40,134 bases of DNA from UHGV virus genome UHGV-0210680; one strand, written 5' to 3'. The translations under genes were made by a program, and so were the position numbers. The stretch is from a virus. Under the pieces are notes generated by a model, which searched no databases, was not told the DNA's origin, and was given only the letters and a program-made list of their open reading frames with translations. Positions 5,888-20,562 of this stretch are shown here, one piece after another (within the stretch, counting starts at the first letter, position 1; each line of letters begins with the position of its first letter).

Positions 5888-7182
5888 TGGCATTAAATGA
5901 AGGTCAACTGGTCACGTATGCTCTGGATGAAATCATCGAAACCGTCCAGAACCTGACGCCAATGGCGTCCAAAGTGACAAAATACACCCCTCCGGCAGAA
6001 TCCATGCAGCGTTCAAGCAACACCGTGTGGATGCCTGTTGAGCAGGAAGCGCCAACTCAGACTGGCTGGGATTTAACTGGCAAAGCAACCGGGATTCTGG
6101 AGCTGTCCGTGAAATGCAACATGGGCGATCCGGATAACGATTTCTTCGAGCTTCGTGCAGATGACCTGCGTGATGAGCGTTCTTACCGTCGCCGCATCCA
6201 GGCATCTGCCAAAAAACTGGCGAATAACATTGAGTCAGCGATTGCCAAACAGGCAACTGAAATGGGCTCGCTTGTTGTTCACGATACCCGCGCAATTGGT
6301 CCATCTACTGGCCTGTCTGGCTGGGATTTTGTGTCTGATGCAGAGCGCCTGATGTTCTCCCGTGAGCTAAACCGCGATATGGGCATCAGTTACTTCCTGA
6401 ACCCTGACGATTACCGCAAAGCAGGCCGCAACCTGGTAGATGGTGACATCTTCGGGCGCGTTACTGAAGACGCGTATCACAACGGTACTATTCAGCGTCA
6501 GATTGCTGGCTTTGATGAAATTCTTCGCTCACCGAAACTTCCGGCGGTTACCAAGTCAACCGCTACTGGTGTAACTGTTTCTGGTGCGCAGAAGTTTAAG
6601 CCGCAGGCATACACCCTTGATACCGATGGTAACAAAGAGAACGTCGATAACCGTGTTGCAACGGTGACCGTATCCTCCACCACCGGATTTAAGCGCGGCG
6701 ACAAAATCAGCTTCACTGGTGTGAAATTCCTGTCTCAGATGGCGAAGAACGTGCTGACTGATGATGCGACTTTCTCAATCACCCGTGTGATCGATGGTAC
6801 TCACATCGAAATCACGCCGAAGCCGATTGCGCTGGATGACGCGTCACTGACAAAAGAAGAGAAGGCTTACGCTAACGTAAACACCTCTCTTGCTGATACT
6901 ACTCCGGTAAACGTTCTGAACGTGGCAACAACCACCGCTAACGTGTTCTGGGCTGATGACTCAATCCGCCTGCTGTCTCAGCCTATCCCGGTAACCCATG
7001 AACTGTTTGCTGGCATGAAAACTTCTTCCTTCAGCATTCCGGGTATTGGTGTTAACGGCATCTTCGCAACGCAGGGTGATATCAACACTCTGTCTGGTAA
7101 GTGCCGTATTGCTGTGTGGTATTCAGCATGCGCTGTGCGACCAGAGGCAATTGGTGTTGGTCTGCCTAACCAGACTGCGTGA
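5887..7182 (+). CDS. major capsid (coat) protein (P22 gp5-like)
   Basis: 431-aa ORF whose sequence (MALNEGQ...WMPVEQE...SPKLP...GVKFL.QMAKNVL...TPKP.ALDD...NVFWADD...IGVGLP.QTA) closely matches the P22 coat protein from memory. Confidence 0.95.
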
Positions 7183-7190
7183 TAACCAGA

Positions 7191-7214
7191 GGGAGCTTCG
7201 GCTCCCTTTTTTAT
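7191..7214 (+). terminator. rho-independent terminator after coat gene
   Basis: GGGAGC-TTCG-GCTCCC hairpin followed by TTTTTTAT, 9 nt after the coat stop. Confidence 0.7.
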
Positions 7215-7226
7215 CTGGAGACAAAC

Positions 7227-7458
<232 letters not shown>

Positions 7459-7481
<23 letters not shown>

Positions 7482-7959
7482 TTTAGTCCTTGCAGCATTA
7501 CGTAAGCTCGGTGTGGCATCAAATGCCACGTTAACCGATGTCGAACCGCAGTCTATGGAAGACGGGGTCAACGACCTTGAAATGATGATGGCTGAATGGC
7601 TTGGCGGTGATGCGTCACCTGGGATCGACGTTGGCTACATTTTCGCTGATGCAGATGTCGCTCCAGATCCGGGCGATGAGCACGGTTTATCAAATAACGC
7701 TATCAATGCCGTCATTTTCAACCTTGCCTGCCGCATTGCTCCAGATTATGCGCTGGAAGCCTCTACAAAACTTATAACCACTGCCAGATACGGGAAAGAG
7801 CGACTCGTCAAACTGTCTGCAATGGACAGAGCAAAAGCCGCTAAATGTAAGTCCGGTTATCCAAACCGTATGCCTGTTGGTAGCGGTAATCAGTTGGCGA
7901 AGTGGAACGGTTGGAATTACTTCCAGCGAAAGGAACCTTGCGATAACGGGAGCGAATAA
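7459..7959 (+). CDS. head completion / tail adaptor protein (P22 gp4-like)
   Basis: 166 aa from the internal ATG at 7459 ([33 protein letters not shown]...), matching the P22 gp4 N-terminus and length. The longer ORF from 7366 runs through the repeat region. Confidence 0.85.
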
Positions 7960-9377
7960 TGCCGATTCAGCAACTTCCGCTTATGAAAGGTGTCGGCAAA
8001 GACTTTCGAAACGCCGACTATATCGACTATCTGCCAGTGAATATGCTGGCTACACCCAAAGAAATCCTGAACAGCAGCGGATATCTTCGCTCATTCCCGG
8101 GCATTGCCAAACGTTCCGACGTGAACGGTGTATCTCGCGGCGTCGAGTACAACATGGCGCAGAGTGCCGTTTATCGTGTGTGTGGCGGCAAGCTCTACAA
8201 AGGCGAAAGCGAAGTCGGTGACGTCGCCGGAAGTGGTCGTGTATCAATGGCACATGGTCGGACATCACAGGCGGTAGGCGTTAATGGTCAACTGGTCGAA
8301 TACCGCTATGATGGCACGGTTAAAACCGTCTCAAACTGGCCTACGGACAGCGGATTCACGCAGTATGAGTTAGGTTCGGTCCGTGACATTACGCGTTTAC
8401 GTGGGCGTTATGCGTGGTCAAAAGACGGTACTGATTCATGGTTTATCACTGACCTTGAAGACGAATCGCACCCTGACCGCTACAGCGCACAATATCGTGC
8501 CGAGTCTCAGCCGGACGGCATCATCGGTATCGGGACATGGCGAGACTTCATCGTCTGCTTTGGTTCATCGACTATTGAATATTTCTCCCTTACTGGCGCA
8601 ACCACCGTTGGTGCTGCTTTGTATGTCGCACAGCCATCACTGATGGTGCAAAAAGGCATTGCCGGGACTTACTGCAAAACGCCGTTTGCTGACTCGTATG
8701 CGTTCATCAGCAATCCGGCAACAGGTGCGCCGTCTGTGTATATCATCGGCTCCGGTCAGGTATCACCAATCGCCAGCGCGAGCATTGAGAAAATACTACG
8801 CTCCTACACTGCTAATGAACTGGCTGATGGTGTGATGGAGTCTCTGCGATTTGATGCGCATGAGCTGCTGATTATCCATCTTCCGCGCCATGTTCTCGTG
8901 TACGACGCATCTTCAAGCGCCAATGGTCCGCAATGGTGTGTGCTGAAAACGGGCCTGTATGACGATGTGTACCGCGCTATCGACTTCATTTACGAAGGCA
9001 ATCAGATAACGTGCGGTGATAAGCTGGAGTCCGTGACCGGGAAATTGCAATTCGACATCAGCAGCCAGTACGACAAGCAACAGGAACACCTGCTGTTTAC
9101 TCCACTGTTCAAAGCGGATAACGCCAGAGTGTTCGACCTTGAGGTTGAGTCGTCAACTGGCGTTGCGCAGTATGCTGACCGACTTTTTCTCTCTGCAACC
9201 ACTGACGGCATAAATTACGGTCGTGAGCAGATGATTGAGCAGAATGAACCGTTCGTTTACGACAAACGCGTTTTGTGGAAGCGAGTTGGGCGCATCAGGA
9301 AAAATGTCGGCTTCAAATTGCGCGTTATCACGAAGTCACCAGTCACTCTGTCTGGCTGCCAGATAAGGATTGAGTAA
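7959..9377 (+). CDS. tail hub protein (P22 gp10-like)
   Basis: 472-aa ORF, same length and position as P22 gp10; start overlaps the gp4 stop. Confidence 0.85.
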
Positions 9378-10225
9378 TGGCGGATTCGAATCTCAATGTG
9401 CCGGTAATCATCCAGGCTACGCGGCTCGACACATCAGTCCTTCCACGCAATATCTTCTCGCAGTCATATCTGCTGTACGTTATCGCACAGGGTACTGATG
9501 TTGGTAACGTGGCGAACAAGGCCAACGAGGCCGGACAGGGCGCTTATGACGCACAGGTCAGAAACGATGAGCAGGATGTGATTCTCGCTGACCATGAGCA
9601 GCGAATTTCTGCTGCGGAAGCAACGCTTGTTAATCATGAGGAGCGAATCAGCCAGGCAGAATCAACTCTTCAGGAACATGAAACGCGAATCGCTCAGAAT
9701 GAAAGCGATATTGCGTCGCTTGATACCAGAGTTCAGTCGCTGGAGTCGCAGGTTTCAGACCATGAAACGCGCATCGATGCTCTGGAGTATGCCACTACTC
9801 GCAAGAAGTCAGAGGTTGTTTACTCTGGCGTATCTGTAACCATCCCGACAGCGCCGACCAACCTTGTTAGCCTGCTGAAAACGCTCACTCCGTCATCCGG
9901 CACGTTGGCACCATTCTTCGACACTGTTAACAACAAGATGGTTGTGTTCAACGAGAACAAAACCTTGTTCTTCAAGCTGTCGATCGTCGGGACGTGGCCC
10001 AGCGGAACCGCCAACAGGTCAATGCAGCTAACCTTTTCCGGCTCTGTTCCTGATACGCTGGTCAGCAGTCGTAATGCGGCGACAACAACCGACAACATCC
10101 TGTTAGCTACATTCTTCAGCGTGGATAAAGACGGATTTCTTGCCACAAATGGCAGTACGTTAACCATTCAGTCGAATGGTGCGGCGTTTACTGCCACAAC
10201 CATCAAGATAATCGCGGAGCAGTGA
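9377..10225 (+). CDS. tail needle protein (gp26-like) with C-terminal knob domain
   Basis: N-terminus ([38 protein letters not shown]) matches the P22 gp26 N-terminal domain, followed by heptad-like HE.RI repeats and a beta-rich C-terminal extension of about 120 aa that P22 lacks (Sf6-type needle, 282 aa). Confidence 0.85.
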
Positions 10226-10680
10226 TGATTCAGTTCAAACCAACGCGAAACATCGACCTGATAGAAGCCGTGGGAAATCACCCCGACATTATCGCCGGGA
10301 GCAACAACGGTGATGGATACGACTACAAGCCTGAATGCCGTTACTTCGAGGTGAACGTGCACGGGCAGTTCGGCGGCATTGTTTACTATCAGGAGATTCA
10401 GCCTTTGACCTTTGATTGCCACGCCATGTACCTGCCAGAGGTTCGTGGATTCAGCAAGGAAATCGGGCTGGCGTTCTGGCGATACATTCTTACTAACACC
10501 ACCGTTCAGTGCGTCACATCGTTCGCTGCGCGCAAATTCCGCCACGGTCAGATGTACTGCGCAATGATTGGCCTTAAGCGTGTAGGAACCATCAAGAAAT
10601 ACTTCAAAGGCGTGGATGACGTGACATTTTACAGCGCCACACGCGAAGAACTAATCGACTTCCTGAATCACGGGAGATAG
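10222..10680 (+). CDS. gp14-like virion assembly / ejection-associated protein
   Basis: 152-aa ORF at the position of P22 gene 14, between needle and gp7; assignment by synteny only. Confidence 0.6.
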
Positions 10681-12716: not shown

Positions 12717-15110
12717 ATGGCTAATTACCGTGATTTGTTAGAGCAGGCTGGCGCACGTTACGGTGTGCCAGAAGGGTTGATGACTGCACTGGGTGCCAAG
12801 GAGTCTTCTTACAACCCTGCCGCAGTAAGCTCCGCCGGGGCTGTAGGATTGACTCAGGTCATGCCTGGGACATGGCGTGATATGGGTTATACCGATGAGC
12901 AAATGCAAAACCCCGAATATCAGGCTGACGCTGGCGCGCGCTATCTGGCAAAGATGTACCAGCAGTTTGGTAACTGGCGTGACGCTCTTCAGGCTTATCA
13001 CGACGGTCCCGGCAACGTTATGAAGGCAAAGCGTGGTGAATATACGCCAGGACCTGAAGGCCGCGGTTACGTTGATGATCGCTTTGCTCAATGGGCGGGT
13101 GACCCGGTGACAGACTCAACAATCGAACAGCGCGCCACCTCTGCAAAGGTACATCCTCAGCAAGACCCTAACAACCCGTTTGCACAACTGGAAGCACAGT
13201 CATCCGAACAAGTATCGGCATCAGGCGTGCAGTCAGACCCAAATAATCCATTTGCTCAGATTGAGCAGCAGGCAGCCAGTCAGCAGCCACCTCAACCCGT
13301 AAGTTCTGTCGCACCGAAACCTGTTCAGCAGCAAGGCGGAATAATGTCTGACCTTGGTAATGGACTTGCTGAAACCGGGCGCGGCTTACTACAGGCAGGA
13401 ATCAACGTAGCGAACATACCTGCTGAACTCACTGATGCTGTAACAAGCGCGGCGGCTTGGGCTGGCGGTAAACTCGGCATTGGCGATGGTACATATCAAC
13501 CAGCACCACGAGTAACAACGCAGGGATTAGAGCAGGACTTTGGCCTTCAGCAAGGCGCGCTGACTCCACAAACGACAGAGGGGAGGGTATTTGCTGAAGC
13601 ATTTCCTTACCTCACTCCTGCTGGCGTTGAGAGAGCGGCAACACAGGCACCAACACTTGCTGGTCGAATTGCTCAGGGGGCAACTCGCCTTCTCGCAGAA
13701 AACGCAGTTGGATCACTTGCTGCAAACAGTATGAAAGATGATGCGGAAGCACTCGCTACCGATTTAGGCGTTGGTGTGCTGGCTGGCGGTGCTATTAACG
13801 CTGCCGGACGTGGATTAGGTGCTGCTTATCGTGGCGTTCGTGGTGCTATTGCGCCAGAAGCGCAGCAGGCTATCAGATTTGCAGAGCGTGAAGGAGTTCC
13901 TCTGCACACCACAGATCTGTTACAGCCTACTTCCCGCGTCGGGAAAATGGCGCAGACGACAGCGGAAAATATCCCCCTGGCTGGCACAAGCGGAATGAGA
14001 GCAACGCAACAGGAAGCGAGAAGCCAGTTGGTGCAGAGATTTGCTGATAAATTCGGTGAGTATGATCCAACTGTTGTTATTGACAGCCTTAAAGCGAAAA
14101 CATCAGGAATTCGTCGTGCTGCAGGGAACCGTCTTGAGCAGGTTCAGAATGCTATGGCTGGAGTAAACATTCAGCCTGCGCGAGCAATTCAGCAGATTGA
14201 TACTGAGATATCTAACCTGCAGAAGCTTGGTAAGGTTGCTGATAACGAGACTATTTCAAAACTTCAGTCATATCGTGATGAGCTTGTTCGCAATGCTGGC
14301 CCTGATGGTCCGGTTAATCTGGATTTGAAGCAATTAAGCGATCTGCGCAGCCAGTTCAGAATGGACGTGAAGGGGGAGCGACCAGTGTTACCAAACCGTT
14401 CCGATGCTGCCATTCAGCGCGTTTACAAGGCAATGACTGACGATATCAATGGTGCCATTGGTCAGAATCTTGGCAACGATACTCTCCGTAAATATCAGCA
14501 GGCCAATGCCGTCTACGCTGACGAAGCGGCGAAACTAAAGAATACCAGGCTGAAGAATGTTCTCATGAAAGGCGATCTGACGCCGGAAGTTGTCAACAAC
14601 ATGCTATTCAGCAAGAACAAATCGGAAATTAAGACGCTGTATAACTCAGTTGGTCGTGTTGGCAGGGCGCAAATGCGCAATGGCATCATTGGAAAGGCGA
14701 TGGAGAAATCAGGTGGTTCCCCTGACCAGTTCCTTCGACAGCTTAACATCCTGCAAAACCAGACTGGCATCACATTTAAAGGTCAGGAAGCCGCTTATCT
14801 GAAAGGATTGAAAAACTACCTGCAATCCACGCAGCAGGCTGCAAAAGCGGCAGTAACAACACCAACAGGGCAGCAAACCATCCCGTTCATTATCGGATAT
14901 GGGACAGCAATGAACCCTGCGACAACTGGCGCAGCGGTAAGCTACGGACTTCTTACTCGTGCCTATGAGAGCGAGTCATTCAGAAATGCAATGCTCCGAA
15001 TGGCAAACACCCCACGCGGATCAACAGCCTTTGAGAAAGCAATGCAGCAGGCACAAAAGGCAATTAACGCTCTGACGCAGGGGGCTAAGTCTGATGCGTT
15101 GTCAGAATAG
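12717..15110 (+). CDS. ejection protein gp16-like with N-terminal lytic transglycosylase (SLT) domain
   Basis: 797-aa ORF at the gene-16 position; the N-terminal ~110 aa carry SLT-like motifs (E-S-S-Y.P.A.S..GA.GL.QVMPGTW...Y); the rest is A/Q-rich, typical of ejection proteins. Confidence 0.75.
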   Translation: MANYRDLLEQAGARYGVPEGLMTALGAKESSYNPAAVSSAGAVGLTQVMPGTWRDMGYTDEQMQNPEYQADAGARYLAKMYQQFGNWRDALQAYHDGPGNVMKAKRGEYTPGPEGRGYVDDRFAQWAGDPVTDSTIEQRATSAKVHPQQDPNNPFAQLEAQSSEQVSASGVQSDPNNPFAQIEQQAASQQPPQPVSSVAPKPVQQQGGIMSDLGNGLAETGRGLLQAGINVANIPAELTDAVTSAAAWAGGKLGIGDGTYQPAPRVTTQGLEQDFGLQQGALTPQTTEGRVFAEAFPYLTPAGVERAATQAPTLAGRIAQGATRLLAENAVGSLAANSMKDDAEALATDLGVGVLAGGAINAAGRGLGAAYRGVRGAIAPEAQQAIRFAEREGVPLHTTDLLQPTSRVGKMAQTTAENIPLAGTSGMRATQQEARSQLVQRFADKFGEYDPTVVIDSLKAKTSGIRRAAGNRLEQVQNAMAGVNIQPARAIQQIDTEISNLQKLGKVADNETISKLQSYRDELVRNAGPDGPVNLDLKQLSDLRSQFRMDVKGERPVLPNRSDAAIQRVYKAMTDDINGAIGQNLGNDTLRKYQQANAVYADEAAKLKNTRLKNVLMKGDLTPEVVNNMLFSKNKSEIKTLYNSVGRVGRAQMRNGIIGKAMEKSGGSPDQFLRQLNILQNQTGITFKGQEAAYLKGLKNYLQSTQQAAKAAVTTPTGQQTIPFIIGYGTAMNPATTGAAVSYGLLTRAYESESFRNAMLRMANTPRGSTAFEKAMQQAQKAINALTQGAKSDALSE

Positions 15111-15199: not shown

Positions 15200-15460
15200 T
15201 TATCTGCTGTCTTTTTTATATAGCTCCTTGAGCGTATCAAAGACAATTTTCTTAACCATATCAGATTGTTGTTCTGCCATACGCTCTGCATCGTCAATGT
15301 AAACTGATGCAGAGCTTTGTTTATCCAATGATTCTTCAATCGCTGCAATTATCTCTGAGTTAAGCGACCTGTTATTCATCTTCGCACGCAGCTTAATTTT
15401 CGCGTGAAGTTCATGCGGAAGTCTCAAGTGAAACTGCGCCTCGTCGTATTTGCTGTACAT
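15200..15460 (-). CDS. mnt: Mnt repressor (ribbon-helix-helix)
   Basis: 86 aa from the ATG at 15460 (MYSKYDEAQFHLRLPHELHAKIKLRAKMNNRSLNSE...NDAERMAEQQSDMVKKIVFDTLKELYKK) closely matching P22 Mnt; an alternative ATG lies at 15493. The 252-aa ORF in the track is an antisense extension into the tailspike gene. Confidence 0.85.
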   Translation of the reverse strand: MYSKYDEAQFHLRLPHELHAKIKLRAKMNNRSLNSEIIAAIEESLDKQSSASVYIDDAERMAEQQSDMVKKIVFDTLKELYKKDSR

Positions 15461-15595
15461 CCTTGATGCCTCACCAGTTGGGTGGAATGGCATCGTAAAA
15501 CCTACTGTACAAATCAACAATCGTACCGTTTCGGTATGCAACAAACACCAACCGTAGCCACGCTGCGGCGATTCCTTGTATCTGGAGCAAATTAA

Positions 15596-17734
15596 ATGAC
15601 AGACATTACAGCCAATGTGATCGTATCGATGCCTTCGCAACTTTTCACTATGGCGCGTTCTTTTAAAGCGGTTGCCAATGGCAAAATTTATATCGGTAAA
15701 ATTGACACGGACCCCGTAAATCCAGAAAACCAGATTCAGGTTTATGTGGAGAACGAAGACGGCTCTCACGTTCCTGTTTCGCAACCAATCATCATTAATG
15801 CTGCTGGATATCCGGTATATAACGGACAGATTGCCAAATTCGTAACTGAGCAAGGCCATTCTATGGCTGTTTATGATGCGTATGGTGCACAGCAGTTCAA
15901 ATTCCCAAATGTGCTGAAGTACGACCCTGATCAATTTGAGATTAGGCTTTCTAATCAAGACGGCGCTGGTCTTGTTGGGATTATGCCATATGGCACGGTA
16001 CAGGATGCCATCAAATGGGTTGTCCCCGAGGTATTCCCCGGAAGTAATGCGTCAGAAAAATTACAGGCAGCTGTAAATTATGCGGTTGCAAACAAAACGA
16101 GAGTTGTAGCATCAGGTGTGTACGATGTAACAGCCCCCGTCACCATCCCAGGAGACATCATTATCGATGCTTCTACTGGAGAATTTACCTTCAATGGCAT
16201 TGATTATATTTTCCATCCGCTTGGCGCAAAATCAGTAGAGATTATCGGTGGTAAGTTCACCGCAAATGCATACCACACCCAGCGTCCTCAGGTAATTTTC
16301 AATGATTACCCTGATGGGCTGGCGAATTTACCAACGCGCGTGGTGATAAAAGATATGCAATGCTTTAACTGCGGTGTTGGCTACATCATGGTTAACTGTC
16401 AGGACCCAACCAGCGTACATATTTCAGTTGAAAATAACTATTGTACGACTGATGATAATACAGATTTATATATATCAAATTCAGATATGCATCCAGGAGA
16501 AAGCATATTCCCATATTTAACAATACTTGGTGATACGCTTGATTCTGTAGATTTGGGAACACCAAGAAAATCAATGTTCCATGTAACAGGAAATACATTC
16601 GATGTGTTTATGCAATCAGGTTATAATACAGATATATATAAAATAGGAAGCACAACAGTAGGAGGGGAAACAACAGGAAATAGGTTCATAAATAGGAATG
16701 AAGAATCATCATGTGAAATTGATACGTTCACCGGAGGTCTTGAATGTGTTATTGATAATAACACAATGTGGAATGTTTCTGTAAAAGCCATGACGTTATT
16801 AATAAGTGGCGGTGAACGAGTTGGTCTTGGTGGAAGATCATCTATAAGTAATAACGTTTTTCATTTTGAAAAAAACCCACTTAATGATTTTGGAATATGG
16901 TTAAGAACATCACTGGTAAATGTATGTAACAATGTTATTTATTATGTTGGATCTGATAACCCCTCAGAGCAACGTACATTTAACGGAATTTCAGGGCAAA
17001 AATTAGATAATAATAACAATGGATTTGGTGGTGATTGGTGTGCTGGTAATAACGTATCCAACAACATAATTCAAATTATTACAGGTGAAGTTGACAAATC
17101 TGTTAGAGTGCAATGCATCAATCCTACTGATTTCGCTGGGAGCGTTTTTAATGGAAATTGTCTTTTTGGTGGTAATGGTATGGTGATAGATGCAAGACCT
17201 GAAAGAAATAGAAATGTCTGGAGTGGTAATTATATAAGCTCTGGTCTATTTTCTGCTGAGGATATATGGAGAATGAATTCCGCATTCGTTGGTGGAAGTA
17301 ATTATATTGGAAGTTCTTACGATAACTCTGTTCGTGGCCCATATCTTTTAAGAAAGGAAATACCAGCTCAACAAGATGGGAGTATAATAAGAATTGAATT
17401 GGATTATGCGATAAATAATGGATACGCTTCGGACAGATGTCTTTATCTCTTAATGGTAAAAGTTAATGGTGGGATTAAAAATAACTATCAGACATTTGTT
17501 GTCTCTTCTGGAGCTCACGATGCGCAAGATCTAAAGCCAGCAATAGACGAAAGAATAGACCCAAACACAACTGACAACAATTTAAAACAAATATCATTTA
17601 GAGCTGGTTATACAGGTTCTAGTGGGCTAATTGTTTTGCAGGCAAGGGGTAATTATTATTCATCAGGAAATCCACCGACATCTATAGAATATTCTATTAT
17701 ACCGTTAACAGCAAACTTCCCCATGGCATTTTAA
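15596..17734 (+). CDS. tailspike protein (P22 gp9-like head-binding domain plus divergent receptor-binding domain)
   Basis: The N-terminal ~120 aa (MTDITANV.VS.P...SFKAVANGKIYIG.IDTDPVNP.NQI.VY.ENEDGSHV...NVLKYDPDQ) match the P22 tailspike head-binding domain. The remaining ~590 aa are N/G/S/I-rich and encoded by markedly AT-rich DNA. GGAG RBS upstream. Confidence 0.9.
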   Translation: MTDITANVIVSMPSQLFTMARSFKAVANGKIYIGKIDTDPVNPENQIQVYVENEDGSHVPVSQPIIINAAGYPVYNGQIAKFVTEQGHSMAVYDAYGAQQFKFPNVLKYDPDQFEIRLSNQDGAGLVGIMPYGTVQDAIKWVVPEVFPGSNASEKLQAAVNYAVANKTRVVASGVYDVTAPVTIPGDIIIDASTGEFTFNGIDYIFHPLGAKSVEIIGGKFTANAYHTQRPQVIFNDYPDGLANLPTRVVIKDMQCFNCGVGYIMVNCQDPTSVHISVENNYCTTDDNTDLYISNSDMHPGESIFPYLTILGDTLDSVDLGTPRKSMFHVTGNTFDVFMQSGYNTDIYKIGSTTVGGETTGNRFINRNEESSCEIDTFTGGLECVIDNNTMWNVSVKAMTLLISGGERVGLGGRSSISNNVFHFEKNPLNDFGIWLRTSLVNVCNNVIYYVGSDNPSEQRTFNGISGQKLDNNNNGFGGDWCAGNNVSNNIIQIITGEVDKSVRVQCINPTDFAGSVFNGNCLFGGNGMVIDARPERNRNVWSGNYISSGLFSAEDIWRMNSAFVGGSNYIGSSYDNSVRGPYLLRKEIPAQQDGSIIRIELDYAINNGYASDRCLYLLMVKVNGGIKNNYQTFVVSSGAHDAQDLKPAIDERIDPNTTDNNLKQISFRAGYTGSSGLIVLQARGNYYSSGNPPTSIEYSIIPLTANFPMAF

Positions 17735-17739
17735 TAAAT

Positions 17740-17764
17740 GCCAGCGCATGACAAGTGCGCTGGC
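17740..17764. terminator. bidirectional rho-independent terminator between convergent tailspike and oac genes
   Basis: Perfect 9-bp stem GCCAGCGCA / TGCGCTGGC with a 7-nt loop, flanked by A/T-rich sequence on both sides, between the tailspike stop (17734) and the oac stop (17773). Confidence 0.7.
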
Positions 17765-17772
17765 ATTGCTGG

Positions 17773-18780
17773 TCATATTATCTTATTCAAATACTTTAAT
17801 TTACTAATAATCAAGCTAGCTGCTAAAGAAGATGCAAAAACTACCACTATCATAAAGAGCATGTATACAATAGAGAATGCATTTATTTTTAATAAATGTC
17901 TCAATAAATAAGAGTAAAGCTCAATAAAAATAGGATGTATTAAATACACTCCAAGTGTTAGGCTTGCTAGTTTTTTTGATAATAACGACTCTCCACCATT
18001 GATTGAAGAACATATCGCGAATATTAACACCGATGAAATAAAAACATTTAAGCTTAAATAGTCATAGAAATACACTCGACCAAACTTATAAGCTAAAATA
18101 GCCGTTATTATCAATGAAATTAATGTGAATATAGTACACATGCAAAGTTTTTCTGTTTTCTTTGCCCTAAACACACCACCAATAACGAAGTAGCCTATAT
18201 AATTTAAAAATGTTATCATGAAAAATTGCGGTTTGTTGTTTTCCATGCCAACAACGTTGTTGTATATTAGATTAATCAATGGCAATGCAGAGCATATTAC
18301 AATGAGGATTGTTACTTCATTATCACTTGATTTTGCAATTATTTTTCTTAAAAAAGGCGTTATAATATATAAAAAAGGAATCATATATAAAAACCACATA
18401 TGGTAATATGGTTTACCAGCTAAAAGCTGTTTTATTGATGTTATAACCCCTAGAGTTATATCACCTTTGATGTATGACTTAAATATTGTCCATGCGATAT
18501 ATATCATCGTCCATGCCAATACTGGGATCAATATCCTCGTCATTCTTTTTTTGTAAAAACTAATTGTAGAATCCGTTCCATTTATCAAAAAGTAACCACT
18601 CAACATAACAAAAACAGGAACGCTCCATCTGCTGAATGAATCAAGAATATTTGCAGACCACCAAAGTGTAGATCCATAGAAGCTTGGGTTAGTATCTGCG
18701 AAAGTAACATACCCAGCTGTGACATGTATAACAACAACCATAAAAATGGCAAATACTCTTAAATTATAAGCCCACTGCAT
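17773..18780 (-). CDS. oac: O-antigen O-acetyltransferase (acyltransferase-3 family integral membrane protein)
   Basis: 335-aa, very hydrophobic multi-pass ORF with an N-terminal motif typical of the acyltransferase-3 family (RVFAIFMVVVIHV...W.......FSRWSVP.FVMLSGYFL); very AT-rich; sits between tailspike and int as oac does in Sf6. Confidence 0.8.
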   Translation of the reverse strand: MQWAYNLRVFAIFMVVVIHVTAGYVTFADTNPSFYGSTLWWSANILDSFSRWSVPVFVMLSGYFLINGTDSTISFYKKRMTRILIPVLAWTMIYIAWTIFKSYIKGDITLGVITSIKQLLAGKPYYHMWFLYMIPFLYIITPFLRKIIAKSSDNEVTILIVICSALPLINLIYNNVVGMENNKPQFFMITFLNYIGYFVIGGVFRAKKTEKLCMCTIFTLISLIITAILAYKFGRVYFYDYLSLNVFISSVLIFAICSSINGGESLLSKKLASLTLGVYLIHPIFIELYSYLLRHLLKINAFSIVYMLFMIVVVFASSLAASLIISKLKYLNKII

Positions 18781-18963
18781 TTTTACGCCCTTATATTAAA
18801 ATTATATATGACAATATTAATATTGCTTATTCTAAAATTGGAATAATGAGTGCCATCTCATTTGTTTTTCCGTTTATATTCTAAATCAAACTACAATTAC
18901 AATAAAAATAGTAACACATGTAAATAAAATTTATATCATTTTTCAATGATATATGAGTGATCT

Positions 18964-20112
18964 TTATCTATCAAGCCAGTCCGCCCACCATTGCATCATT
19001 TCTCTGCGTTTATCGAGATACTGAGCATGGTTGTAAATTCCACGCACAGAACCGCCGTTGGCATGTGCCAGTTGCACTTCAATAGCATCAGCAGGCCATT
19101 CGTGCTCGTTCATAATCGTGCTGAATTCATGCCTGAATCCGTGACCGCTTTCCAGACCTTCATAGCCGATTTGTTTGATCACAAGCAGTACCGCGTTCTC
19201 GCAGATTGGCTTCTTCTTATCGTTGCGCCCGGCAAAAACAAACTCTGATACTGGTTTAGTGATGGAGCTTAGCGTAGTGAGAAGTTCAACTACCTGGTCC
19301 GACATCGGAACCACATGAATCTTGCGTCCCTTCATCACACTGGCGTCGATGGTGATAATCCTGTTTTCAAAATCGACGTTCTTCCATTGCATGGAACGAA
19401 GCTCTTTTGTTCTTAGTGCTGTGTAGCGTAAAACTTTGGTCGCAATGAGAGATACGATACTTCCTGAAAATGTTGCAAGTGCTTTGTTGAATGCCGGGAT
19501 CTGGTCGGCAGGTAAAAACGGGAAGTTCTTCTTGCGGTATCCTTTCATGGCGTCTGCAAGGTCAGGTGCCGGGTTATATTTAGCCCTTCCGGTGACAATA
19601 GCGTAACGAAAAACCTCGCCGCATCTTCTGCGGGCTTTGTTGGCTCGCTCCATTGCACCGCGATCTTCAAATCTGCGGATTACTTCCAGCAGTTGCATCG
19701 GCTCAATATCATGAATCTCAAGACCGCCGATGATGGGTAAAATGTCGTCATCAAACATTTTGGCAAGTTCAGTTGCATAGCCTACTGACCAGACTTGCTT
19801 CTTGTGCTCGTACCATTCCTTGTAAATCGCACTAAATGAATTGTTGTTAGACGAAGCCTTTTTCGCCTTTACCGGATCGATGCCAACCGAGATGTCTTTC
19901 CTCGCAGTCCATGCCTTATCCCTTGCTTCCTGCAAAGTCATAAGCGGATATTTTCCGACGGTCAGGATTTTCTCCTTACCGTCAATCTTGTAGCGAAGCT
20001 GCCATACCTTTTTCCCGGATACAGGAACATAAAGGTACAGGCCATTACCATCGAGAAGGCGGTATGGTTTTTCTTTCGGCTTTGCTGCTTCAATCTGCTT
20101 AACGGTGAGCAT
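18964..20112 (-). CDS. int: tyrosine integrase (P4-like family)
   Basis: N-terminus from the ATG at 20112 (MLTVKQIEAAKPKEKPYRLLDGNGLYLYVPVSGKKVWQLRY) matches the P4-type integrase arm-binding domain; the C-terminus has an HGFRH box and a catalytic-Tyr region (GIYNHAQY). The ORF track begins at an upstream GTG (20148). Confidence 0.85.
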   Translation of the reverse strand: MLTVKQIEAAKPKEKPYRLLDGNGLYLYVPVSGKKVWQLRYKIDGKEKILTVGKYPLMTLQEARDKAWTARKDISVGIDPVKAKKASSNNNSFSAIYKEWYEHKKQVWSVGYATELAKMFDDDILPIIGGLEIHDIEPMQLLEVIRRFEDRGAMERANKARRRCGEVFRYAIVTGRAKYNPAPDLADAMKGYRKKNFPFLPADQIPAFNKALATFSGSIVSLIATKVLRYTALRTKELRSMQWKNVDFENRIITIDASVMKGRKIHVVPMSDQVVELLTTLSSITKPVSEFVFAGRNDKKKPICENAVLLVIKQIGYEGLESGHGFRHEFSTIMNEHEWPADAIEVQLAHANGGSVRGIYNHAQYLDKRREMMQWWADWLDR

Positions 20113-20361
20113 GGGTAAAAATCCGGTGGGTAAAATTATTTTATCCACTTTTTACCCGTCATGGAGTGCGGCTGTCAACGATCTGACGCGAACCATGACG
20201 AACCGTGAATATACGGAAGGCTTGATATTCAGGGGATTTTGCGGACTGGTACGGATGGGAGCGAACTGATAAATGGTGTCCCCTGCAGACATCTACTTGA
20301 GGCAGCAGGGGATTGATTAGAATGGTATTTTTTAGATGTGAGAAATATTTTACCCGCTAAT

Positions 20362-20562
20362 TTACCCATTAGCGCGGCTTAAGAGCTTATTTTTGAATTC
20401 ACAATGGTCACGATATAACCATCTTGCTCGCCCGTGGATAACTTTGGCTTTTGGCAGGTCGCCGGACTTAATCCGGTCATAGATGAAGGTTTTACCGAAG
20501 CCAGTATCAGCCATGATGAATTTCAAATCAACCAGGGAATCAGGCTGTAGTTCGTGTTGCAT
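20362..20562 (-). CDS. xis: excisionase / AlpA-family DNA-binding protein
   Basis: 66-aa ORF adjacent to int on the same strand, with an AlpA/Xis-like winged-helix pattern (..ADTGFGKTFIYDRIKSGDLPKAKVIHGRARW...). Confidence 0.7.
   Translation of the reverse strand: MQHELQPDSLVDLKFIMADTGFGKTFIYDRIKSGDLPKAKVIHGRARWLYRDHCEFKNKLLSRANG

Follow-up and report, generated by a model that had tools for sequence, protein, structure and literature searches.

The stretch of DNA analyzed here, hereafter called the window, is the 40,134-nt viral genome UHGV-0210680, a complete genome of a P22-like (Lederbergvirus) temperate phage whose structural and integration genes are, in a nucleotide search of phage records, about 95–96% identical to those of Sf6, HK620, N7 and similar phages. 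A gene for a putative O-antigen O-acyltransferase of the acyltransferase-3 (AT3) family lies between its tailspike and integrase (int) genes and, together with the AT-rich DNA upstream of it, is the subject of this work. The locus is composed of the following features:

15596..17734, plus strand: tailspike of 712 aa, with a P22-type head-binding domain (Head_binding, E=2e-64) followed by a predicted beta-helix receptor-binding part
16466..18962, no strand assigned: low-G+C mosaic cassette made up of the tailspike's variable C-terminal part, the terminator, the acyltransferase gene and the spacer
17737..17767, no strand assigned: GC-rich hairpin between the convergent stop codons, candidate bidirectional terminator (from RNA folding)
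17773..18780, minus strand: AT3-only acyltransferase gene, putative O-antigen O-acyltransferase, 335 aa, ATG start (open reading frame list and PF01757)
18781..18963, minus strand: AT-rich spacer from the int stop to the acyltransferase start, 21.3% G+C, presumed promoter/regulatory region
18964..20148, minus strand: IntS-type tyrosine integrase (Phage_integrase, Phage_int_M and Arm-DNA-bind_3 domains)
20274..20288, no strand assigned: core of the phage attachment site (attP), TGGTGTCCCCTGCAG, a 15-mer equal to the 3′ end of the tRNA-Arg gene argW and located at the window/prophage junction

The acyltransferase gene is convergent with the tailspike gene; it is on the strand of int and downstream of that gene. 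An earlier note on this DNA, drawn from the sequence, had described a 335-aa polytopic acyltransferase-3 protein encoded on the opposite strand between tailspike and int, in the position of Sf6 oac. The open reading frame (ORF) was found exactly as claimed, and the order annotated in the Sf6 record (tailspike, terminator, oac, promoter, int) is that of the window. RefSeq labels the same 1008-bp coding sequence "acyltransferase" in three E. coli genomes, whose prophages have the order tailspike, acyltransferase, intS, tRNA-Arg argW. The int gene is about 96% identical in nucleotide sequence to those of Sf6 and HK620, and in the RefSeq copies it starts about 36 nt further in (1149 bp).

The acyltransferase (gene G+C, 30.6%) matched PF01757 (Acyl_transf_3) with an E-value of 3.8e-42 and 144.9 bits (cut-off 31), the alignment of residues 6–319 with profile positions 6–322 of 326 covering essentially the whole domain, and it matched phrog_3333, labeled "O-acetyltransferase", with E=3e-60. 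Its hydropathy profile contains at least nine hydrophobic segments, as expected for a polytopic protein, and the AlphaFold model, for which 48 homologues were aligned, consists of helices throughout, about 10 of them of membrane length (predicted local distance difference test score, pLDDT, 92.8; predicted template modeling score, pTM, 0.91), so that the topology claimed earlier was borne out and the AT3 fold of about 10 transmembrane helices (TMH) is found, as a prediction. The two motifs that define AT3 proteins, R-X10-H in TMH1 and RXXR at the cytoplasmic face of TMH3 (PMC9833829), are both found, as R8-X10-H19 and R79-M-T-R82. H19 and R79 are invariant in the alignment of 48 homologues, R8 is nearly invariant and R82 is the majority residue; in a panel of seven AT3 proteins including Sf6 Oac, phiV10 Oac, WecH, OpgC and an AT3-SGNH protein, R8, H19 and R82 are kept in all, and at the R79 position WecH alone has H. 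There was no match to an SGNH domain and the protein stops at residue 335, which makes it a stand-alone AT3 and not a member of the fused AT3-SGNH class of the OafA/OafB/OatA type, in which a C-terminal periplasmic SGNH domain follows an 11th TMH.

We compared four copies of the gene, that of the window and those of the three E. coli prophages. All are intact, and 13 ORF positions vary, nine of them synonymously and four by conservative replacement, giving a ratio of nonsynonymous to synonymous change (dN/dS) of about 0.12 (binomial P=2.7e-4) and indicating that the protein is under purifying selection. Judged from its sequence and model, the protein looks like a competent AT3 enzyme whose catalytic activity is predicted. 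The model had no Foldseek match against the Protein Data Bank (PDB) at E≤0.001 and the sequence had no phmmer match there, with no solved AT3 structure for comparison; against viral models Foldseek returned a single borderline match (E=1.6e-3), probably an AT3-SGNH protein. NCBIfam gave just a weak match, to the AT3 part of VanT, and PADLOC gave no match to a defense system. Phase variation as in neuO was also looked for, and neither tandem repeats nor homopolymers longer than 7 nt were found, the homopolymers being invariant among the copies.

The nearest characterized relative is phiV10 Oac, with 29% identity over the full length (80.9 bits, E=9e-22), followed by E. coli WecH, the acetylase of enterobacterial common antigen (ECA), which is 31% identical across the N-terminal 178 residues (68.6 bits). 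Sf6 Oac is 25% identical (24.6 bits, pairwise E=0.003) and has a marginal score in the panel, as do OpgC (22 bits) and the AT3 domain of the sister AT3-SGNH enzyme described below. Sf6 is absent from the tblastn matches of the acyltransferase at E≤1e-5, and membership in the Sf6 Oac orthologue group (oac, oac1b) is ruled out by the 25% identity and 24.6 bits. The alignment check proposed earlier, whether the protein aligns better to acyltransferases that do not act on lipopolysaccharide (LPS), thus gave a mixed answer: WecH scores higher than Sf6 Oac, and the best match of all is an O-antigen acetylase. A collection of 5.8 billion proteins contained one near-identical E. coli cluster, one 53% homologue and otherwise homologues of at most 41% identity. 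One of these, a 40% homologue, occurs twice on a Joint Genome Institute metagenome contig (L013, 1–10400) in an array of many short ORFs on the same strand, which also repeats GNAT acetyltransferases and looks like an integron-type gene-cassette array. By sequence comparison, then, the acyltransferase is an analogue of oac by position and belongs to another AT3 lineage, and since identity to any characterized AT3 is at most 31%, sequence alone does not assign its acceptor.

Evidence bearing on the acceptor came from the neighboring tailspike and from the hosts. The acyltransferase belongs to a low-G+C cassette (about 16466–18962) that includes the variable C-terminal 420 residues of the tailspike, with G+C contents of 35% for the tailspike part, 31% for the acyltransferase and 21% for the spacer. 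On the left the cassette begins where identity to the type-B tailspikes (see below) drops, and on the right it ends at the int stop. It had no nucleotide match among 50,697 phage records and was present as a single block in three of 5,426 complete E. coli genomes. The wzx/wzy genes of the O153/O178 O-antigen occur in 16 of these genomes, and all three cassette genomes are among the 16 (hypergeometric P=2e-8, genome relatedness being ignored). A sensitive blastn search with the variable tailspike part found six genomes in all, every one of them among the 16. One cassette host is typed O178:H19 and its O-antigen cluster is annotated with O153/O178-family wzx/wzy; this cluster (NZ_CP024289.1, 750000–771000) contains no acetyltransferase gene. 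It has 28.7% G+C and carries gnu upstream of galF, and in 14 of the 16 genomes wzx/wzy show 100% identity. Two features of phage-borne serotype-converting O-antigen O-acetyltransferases are found here, namely a temperate-phage gene located by int/att and a receptor-binding gene, and hosts that share the O-antigen type presumed to be the receptor.

Sequence matches of the tailspike in the PDB are limited to residues 1–142. The model of residues 120–712 (pLDDT 78) is a predicted right-handed beta-helix, which Foldseek relates to the beta-helices of the HK620, Sf6, Det7 and Acinetobacter tailspikes with probability 1.00, template modeling scores of 0.26–0.36 and about 10% identity; the receptor part is therefore predicted to be of the beta-helix depolymerase class, a likeness at the level of the fold only. 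In a tblastn search of the phage records, the receptor part matched only vB_EcoS_swi2 (69%). A link to TSP3 of the O153-specific Agtrevirus AV101 (PMC10791037) was considered and rejected, as the same search gave no AV101 match. From the restriction to O153/O178 hosts we infer that the receptor of the tailspike is the O153/O178 O-antigen. The 53% homologue of the acyltransferase, on a metagenome contig, is convergent with a tailspike 52% identical to that of the window over its whole length, which indicates that the two genes diverged together.

The surroundings of the module vary. An Arc/Mnt-family repressor gene (86 aa, about 15214–15474, minus strand) lies directly upstream of the tailspike and carries an annotation in the prophage copies; in the program-made ORF list it is stretched to a spurious 252-aa TTG-initiated ORF that overlaps the tailspike start. 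The window encodes at 12717–15110 a 797-aa ejection protein with a lytic-transglycosylase-type start, like that of the M9 prophage, which is replaced by a 665-aa gp16-type protein in the O178:H19 and SY038 prophages carrying the same tailspike/acyltransferase module, showing that the module sits on different phage backbones. In BKQWHE (NZ_CP170298.1, 4500–9813) the prophage has decayed to about 5 kb and consists of arc, tailspike, acyltransferase and intS by argW; all four ORFs are intact, and the remnant directly abuts emrY and pieces of an ejection-protein gene.

The spacer of 183 bp has the lowest G+C content in the window, whose average is 47.0%. Segments of 183 bp with at most 25% G+C are confined to 18724–18985, and 0.05% of all such segments are as low as the spacer. 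Its description in the earlier note as almost pure A/T pointed to a real compositional extreme but was overstated, the A+T content being 79%. The counterpart spacers have 31–47% G+C (Sf6, 47%; E62 type, 42%; phiV10, 33%; 53% homologue, 31%). As homology with Sf6 and HK620 resumes only at the int stop (about 18962), the spacer belongs to the imported cassette. Among the four copies, its proximal 100 bp are invariant, and six variable sites are all in the distal half. No ORF of at least 26 aa lies wholly within it and nothing credible was found among smaller ones. An Rfam search of 17600–20500 gave two sub-threshold chance matches and none in the spacer; one of the two, to isrK, lies within int at 19550–19640 (20.5 bits against a gathering threshold of 50, E=0.18), at terminator-like hairpins, and is probably due to chance. 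The spacer between acyltransferase and int of E62 (L011, 10533–10610) contains about 60–80 bp just downstream of int that are absent from the spacer of the window and match 448 E. coli genomes, including K-12, with 83–95% identity.

The same note had held that the spacer must contain the promoter of the gene. From its sequence it is a plausible candidate region for this, but promoter-like matches in the region number 10, against 10.1 in shuffled sequence, and no site is singled out. Near-consensus −10 hexamers number 18 in the spacer, about 12-fold more than the window average of 1.5, because the spacer is AT-rich. The candidate expression signals are:

18788..18792, minus strand: Shine-Dalgarno-like AAGGG, 7 nt before the ATG (sequence reading)
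18801..18806, minus strand: promoter candidate c, perfect TATAAT that starts 26 nt ahead of the ATG, the −35 (TAAGCA) being weak (hexamer match)
18829..18856, minus strand: promoter candidate b, ATGGCA-16-TAGAAT, 9/12 matches, −10 beginning 54 nt upstream of the ATG
18946..18974, minus strand: promoter candidate a, TTGATA-17-TATCAT, 10/12 matches, closest to consensus of all in the region and overlapping the stop codon of int

From candidate a the leader would be about 160 nt long, and this candidate is overlapped by a 9-bp inverted repeat of A and T only (18932–18953), located just past the int stop. Candidate b is located where the spacer is invariant, and its −10 block TTTAGAATA aligns with TTTAGTATA upstream of the 53% homologue. 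An exact 9-nt direct repeat, TATTCTAAA (the −10-like TTTAGAATA on the coding strand), occurs at 18828–18836 and 18877–18885. Footprinting of the spacer against the region upstream of the 53% homologue revealed short common blocks only. That region has a strong terminator followed by an extended −10 promoter-like site, supporting autonomous transcription. Binding of H-NS to DNA as AT-rich as the spacer is expected, and the spacer is probably just xenogeneic promoter DNA.

RNA folding gave the hairpin between the convergent stop codons an energy of −23.5 kcal/mol (z=−5.0) for the strand of the tailspike and −20.5 kcal/mol (z=−3.9) for that of the acyltransferase, and none of 200 shuffled sequences was as stable. 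It is invariant in the four copies, and Sf6 has an annotated terminator at the equivalent place. Of the marks of a moron, an accessory unit of a prophage with its own transcription, the gene has a strong terminator hairpin and a foreign composition, with promoter matches that equal the expectation from shuffled sequence.

It had further been suggested that attP may lie near the spacer. The junction of the O178:H19 prophage with its host and the window are identical through TGGTGTCCCCTGCAG and diverge directly after it, placing attP upstream of int, 1.3 kb from the spacer, which rules out the AT-rich spacer as its location. The attP core of Sf6 is annotated at the same place, and the position upstream of int is that of Sf6 and HK620. 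After integration, tailspike, acyltransferase and int remain contiguous at the prophage end adjoining argW.

Other prophages carry different genes in the same slot. In type B (E62, M9 and M6, with O153/O178 hosts; loci L011 of E62 and L010 of M9, both at 6297–10457), the tailspike has 718 aa and is 75% identical to that of the window, nearly identical over the first 290 or so residues and about 60% beyond, and the slot is filled by a 651-aa AT3-SGNH acyltransferase with a PF19040 domain and no detectable similarity to the protein of the window. The prophage of M9 and M6 adjoins torT, and its int is a pseudogene fragment. In type C (L039/L040, 2625–7484, at argW), the tailspike (P0123) has the same receptor-binding module with about 77% identity plus a C-terminal GDSL/SGNH esterase domain at residues ~736–934. 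The type-C AT3-SGNH enzyme is nearly identical to that of type B in its AT3 part, over the first 310 or so residues; the linker and SGNH domain have diverged, for an overall identity of 65%. Module and esterase are also found on an Ackermannviridae-type tailspike N-terminus (P0133 in L041). A precedent for a deacetylating tailspike is G7C gp63.1 (PMC10743462), and in its light an esterase fused to the module is a hint that O-acetylation of the receptor is of consequence for these phages. At least four cassette variants can thus be distinguished: A, the type of the window, with an AT3-only enzyme; the pair diverged to about 52%; B with AT3-SGNH; and C with the esterase and an SGNH-swapped AT3-SGNH.

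We consider that the acyltransferase probably, at roughly 0.62, modifies the O153/O178 O-antigen recognized by the tailspike and is carried as lysogenic-conversion cargo. This reading is indirectly suggested by the occurrence of gene and receptor-binding part as one cassette, the restriction to one host genotype, the divergence together with the tailspike, the acyltransferases and the added esterase of the sister cassettes, the precedents for the slot (Sf6 oac, phiV10 oac, CUS-3 neuO), where the acetyltransferase is one for the polysaccharide that the tailspike attacks, and the beta-helix fold predicted for the tailspike. An O-antigen role had already been proposed in the earlier note; the link to the O-antigen of the tailspike has gained from host genotype, co-divergence and purifying selection, and the protein is not a close homologue of Oac.

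In such a scheme, an Sf6/HK620-like Lederbergvirus that integrates at argW would carry a stand-alone AT3 as cargo. By analogy with other AT3 enzymes, an acyl group, most likely acetyl from cytoplasmic acetyl-CoA, would pass through the 10-helix pore, where R8...H19 and R79xxR82 would bind the donor and, on the periplasmic side, catalyze acyl transfer to a hydroxyl of a sugar in the O153/O178-type O-antigen. The O-antigen of the lysogen would be altered, changing an epitope, and the phage's own beta-helix tailspike may be hindered in binding or cleavage, resulting in superinfection exclusion at the level of the receptor. Acceptor, acyl group, expression in the lysogen and exclusion are all points that we infer. 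The gene would form a separate leftward transcription unit with its own ribosome-binding site, the hairpin terminator shared with the tailspike, and AT-rich DNA upstream, presumably with the promoter in it and likely to be bound by H-NS. The gene is inherited with the receptor-binding part of the tailspike as one low-G+C cassette.

Several observations weigh against this interpretation. Identity to characterized AT3 enzymes does not exceed 31%, and over the N-terminal half WecH scores nearly as well as phiV10 Oac. Homologues of 36–41% identity are found in unrelated contexts, as isolated chromosomal genes, in the cassette array and at the end of a P2-like prophage. The genotype association rests on six complete genomes, and two of the three type-A hosts (O178:H19 and SY038) share flanking alleles and may be related. 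The descriptions consulted give the O153/O178 unit as Hex2HexNAc2Pent1 with ribofuranose (Ribf), N-acetylglucosamine (GlcNAc) and N-acetylgalactosamine (GalNAc) and mention no O-acetyl group; a literature search turned up nothing about this protein, nor about O153/O178 O-acetylation, the primary O178 structure paper being outside that search. Promoter-like matches stand at the chance level, and the 21% G+C region could be silenced by H-NS. Finally, simple self-exclusion is at odds with a type-C phage that has an esterase on its tailspike as well as an acyltransferase.

One alternative is that the gene is functional but largely silent, its upstream region bound by H-NS, ordinarily causing no change of the O-antigen and hitch-hiking with the tailspike. 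This we regard as unlikely, although it is the likeliest of the alternatives. The G+C contents of 21% for the spacer and 31% for the gene are typical of xenogeneic DNA, the promoter-like matches are at chance with −10-like hexamers enriched through composition alone, and the descriptions of O153/O178 consulted make no mention of O-acetyl. A dN/dS of 0.12, on the other hand, speaks for selection on the protein, and the ORF has stayed intact in the decayed BKQWHE remnant. Equally, the invariance of the proximal 100 bp of the spacer, the good Shine-Dalgarno sequence and the dedicated terminator argue for a gene in use, and a low-G+C oac such as that of phiV10 (31%) is annotated as active in immunity.

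Next in order, and of low probability as well, is that the enzyme acylates another envelope glycan in place of the O-antigen, such as ECA, colanic acid or another capsule, the LPS core or periplasmic glucans. WecH is the second-best characterized match and stands far above Sf6 Oac, the acceptors of AT3 enzymes are very diverse (PMC9558356), the CUS-3 slot carries a capsule-specific acetyltransferase, and distant homologues lie outside O-antigen loci. Such an acceptor would leave the host distribution unexplained: the module and relatives of its partner tailspike are found in 6 of 16 O153/O178 genomes against 0 of 5,410 others, and nearly all E. coli have ECA, colanic acid and glucans. In addition, the host already has wecH, and the best full-length characterized match is the O-antigen acetylase of phiV10. 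The idea that the O-antigen receives a non-acetyl group (succinyl, propionyl), or that its modification mainly helps the bacterial host to evade immunity or competitors instead of excluding phages of the same kind, is improbable: there are AT3s that transfer succinyl or other acyl groups, OpgC among them (PMC9558356), and the combination of acyltransferase and esterase tailspike in type C argues against self-exclusion as the sole role, but the described phage-borne O-antigen AT3s transfer acetyl (PMC9558356 and the phiV10 record), protection from the cognate phage is seen with Sf6, BTP1 and phiV10 alike, and OpgC is a very weak match.

Taking modification of the O153/O178 O-antigen as the preferred reading, the single gene is an ordinary example of lysogenic conversion, and the main value of the locus lies in the diversifying tailspike/acyltransferase cassette restricted to O153/O178 prophages, in which one receptor-binding fold has three different acyltransferases as partners and an esterase may be present or absent. 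The paired cassettes offer a compact natural system for the co-evolution of tailspike specificity and receptor modification. Should the enzyme acetylate the O153/O178 O-antigen, there would be prophage-made O-antigen subtypes invisible to wzx/wzy genotyping, which would matter for serotyping E. coli that make Shiga toxin, such as O178:H19, for O-antigen vaccines and for the choice of therapeutic phages or tailspikes. A more tentative proposal, to which we give well under even odds, is that the slot between tailspike and int in Sf6/HK620-like O153/O178 prophages at argW is a fast-evolving two-gene cassette that records an arms race about the O-acetylation of a single O-antigen. In that case, several unrecognized O-acetylation chemotypes, set by prophages, would exist among O153/O178 strains, esterase tailspikes would be counter-measures that strip acetyl groups, and there may be consequences for the serological and genetic relationship of O153 and O178, which is disputed in the literature.

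Comparison with known systems places the gene as follows. Sf6 Oac is likewise a stand-alone AT3 (333 vs 335 aa, both in phrog_3333). Its gene has the same orientation and occupies the same slot between tailspike and int, a terminator separates it from the convergent tailspike gene, and the backbone is of the same type, with flanks about 95% identical and attP at the same place. It differs in composition (42% G+C for oac and 47% for its spacer vs 31% and 21% in the window), in a partner tailspike whose receptor-binding sequence is unrelated to that of the window, and in its acceptor, which is rhamnose of the S. flexneri O-antigen (PMC9558356), a sugar that the descriptions of the O153/O178 unit consulted do not list. 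phiV10 Oac, from a Uetakevirus of E. coli O157:H7, is also AT3-only (338 aa, about 31% G+C), is encoded convergently with the tail fibre/tailspike gene and, according to its record, acetylates the host O-antigen and gives superinfection immunity; phiV10 is of another genus, targets the O157 O-antigen and has lysis genes between oac and int, and 29% identity is too low for a transfer of acceptor specificity. WecH (YiaH) is AT3-only as well (331 aa) and has motif residues in common, but it is a chromosomal housekeeping gene product acting on ECA, similar over half its length and lacking a phage or tailspike context.

The AT3-SGNH enzymes of the OafA/OafB/GtrC(BTP1) type have the same class of role and fill the same slot in E62, M9, M6 and L039; they differ as two-domain proteins of 650–651 aa with a periplasmic SGNH domain and no detectable pairwise similarity to the protein of the window. 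CUS-3 is a P22-like prophage at argW with neuO, for a K1 capsule O-acetyltransferase, between its endosialidase tailspike and int; its target is the K1 capsule, it has a heptanucleotide repeat for phase variation that the window lacks, and the neuO product is a soluble hexapeptide-repeat enzyme, not an AT3. Kapi1, again P22-like and at argW, modifies the O-antigen of its lysogen through an unidentified gene (PMC8787464); it is a close backbone relative, but its slot holds an unrelated ORF. In Sf6 and BTP1, acetylation by Oac and OafB, respectively, blocks the tailspike (PMC9558356). The gene of the window is an uncharacterized example of this well-known type of phage lysogenic conversion, involving no new mechanism, and by analogy it looks mechanistically like Sf6 Oac, phiV10 Oac and BTP1 OafB.

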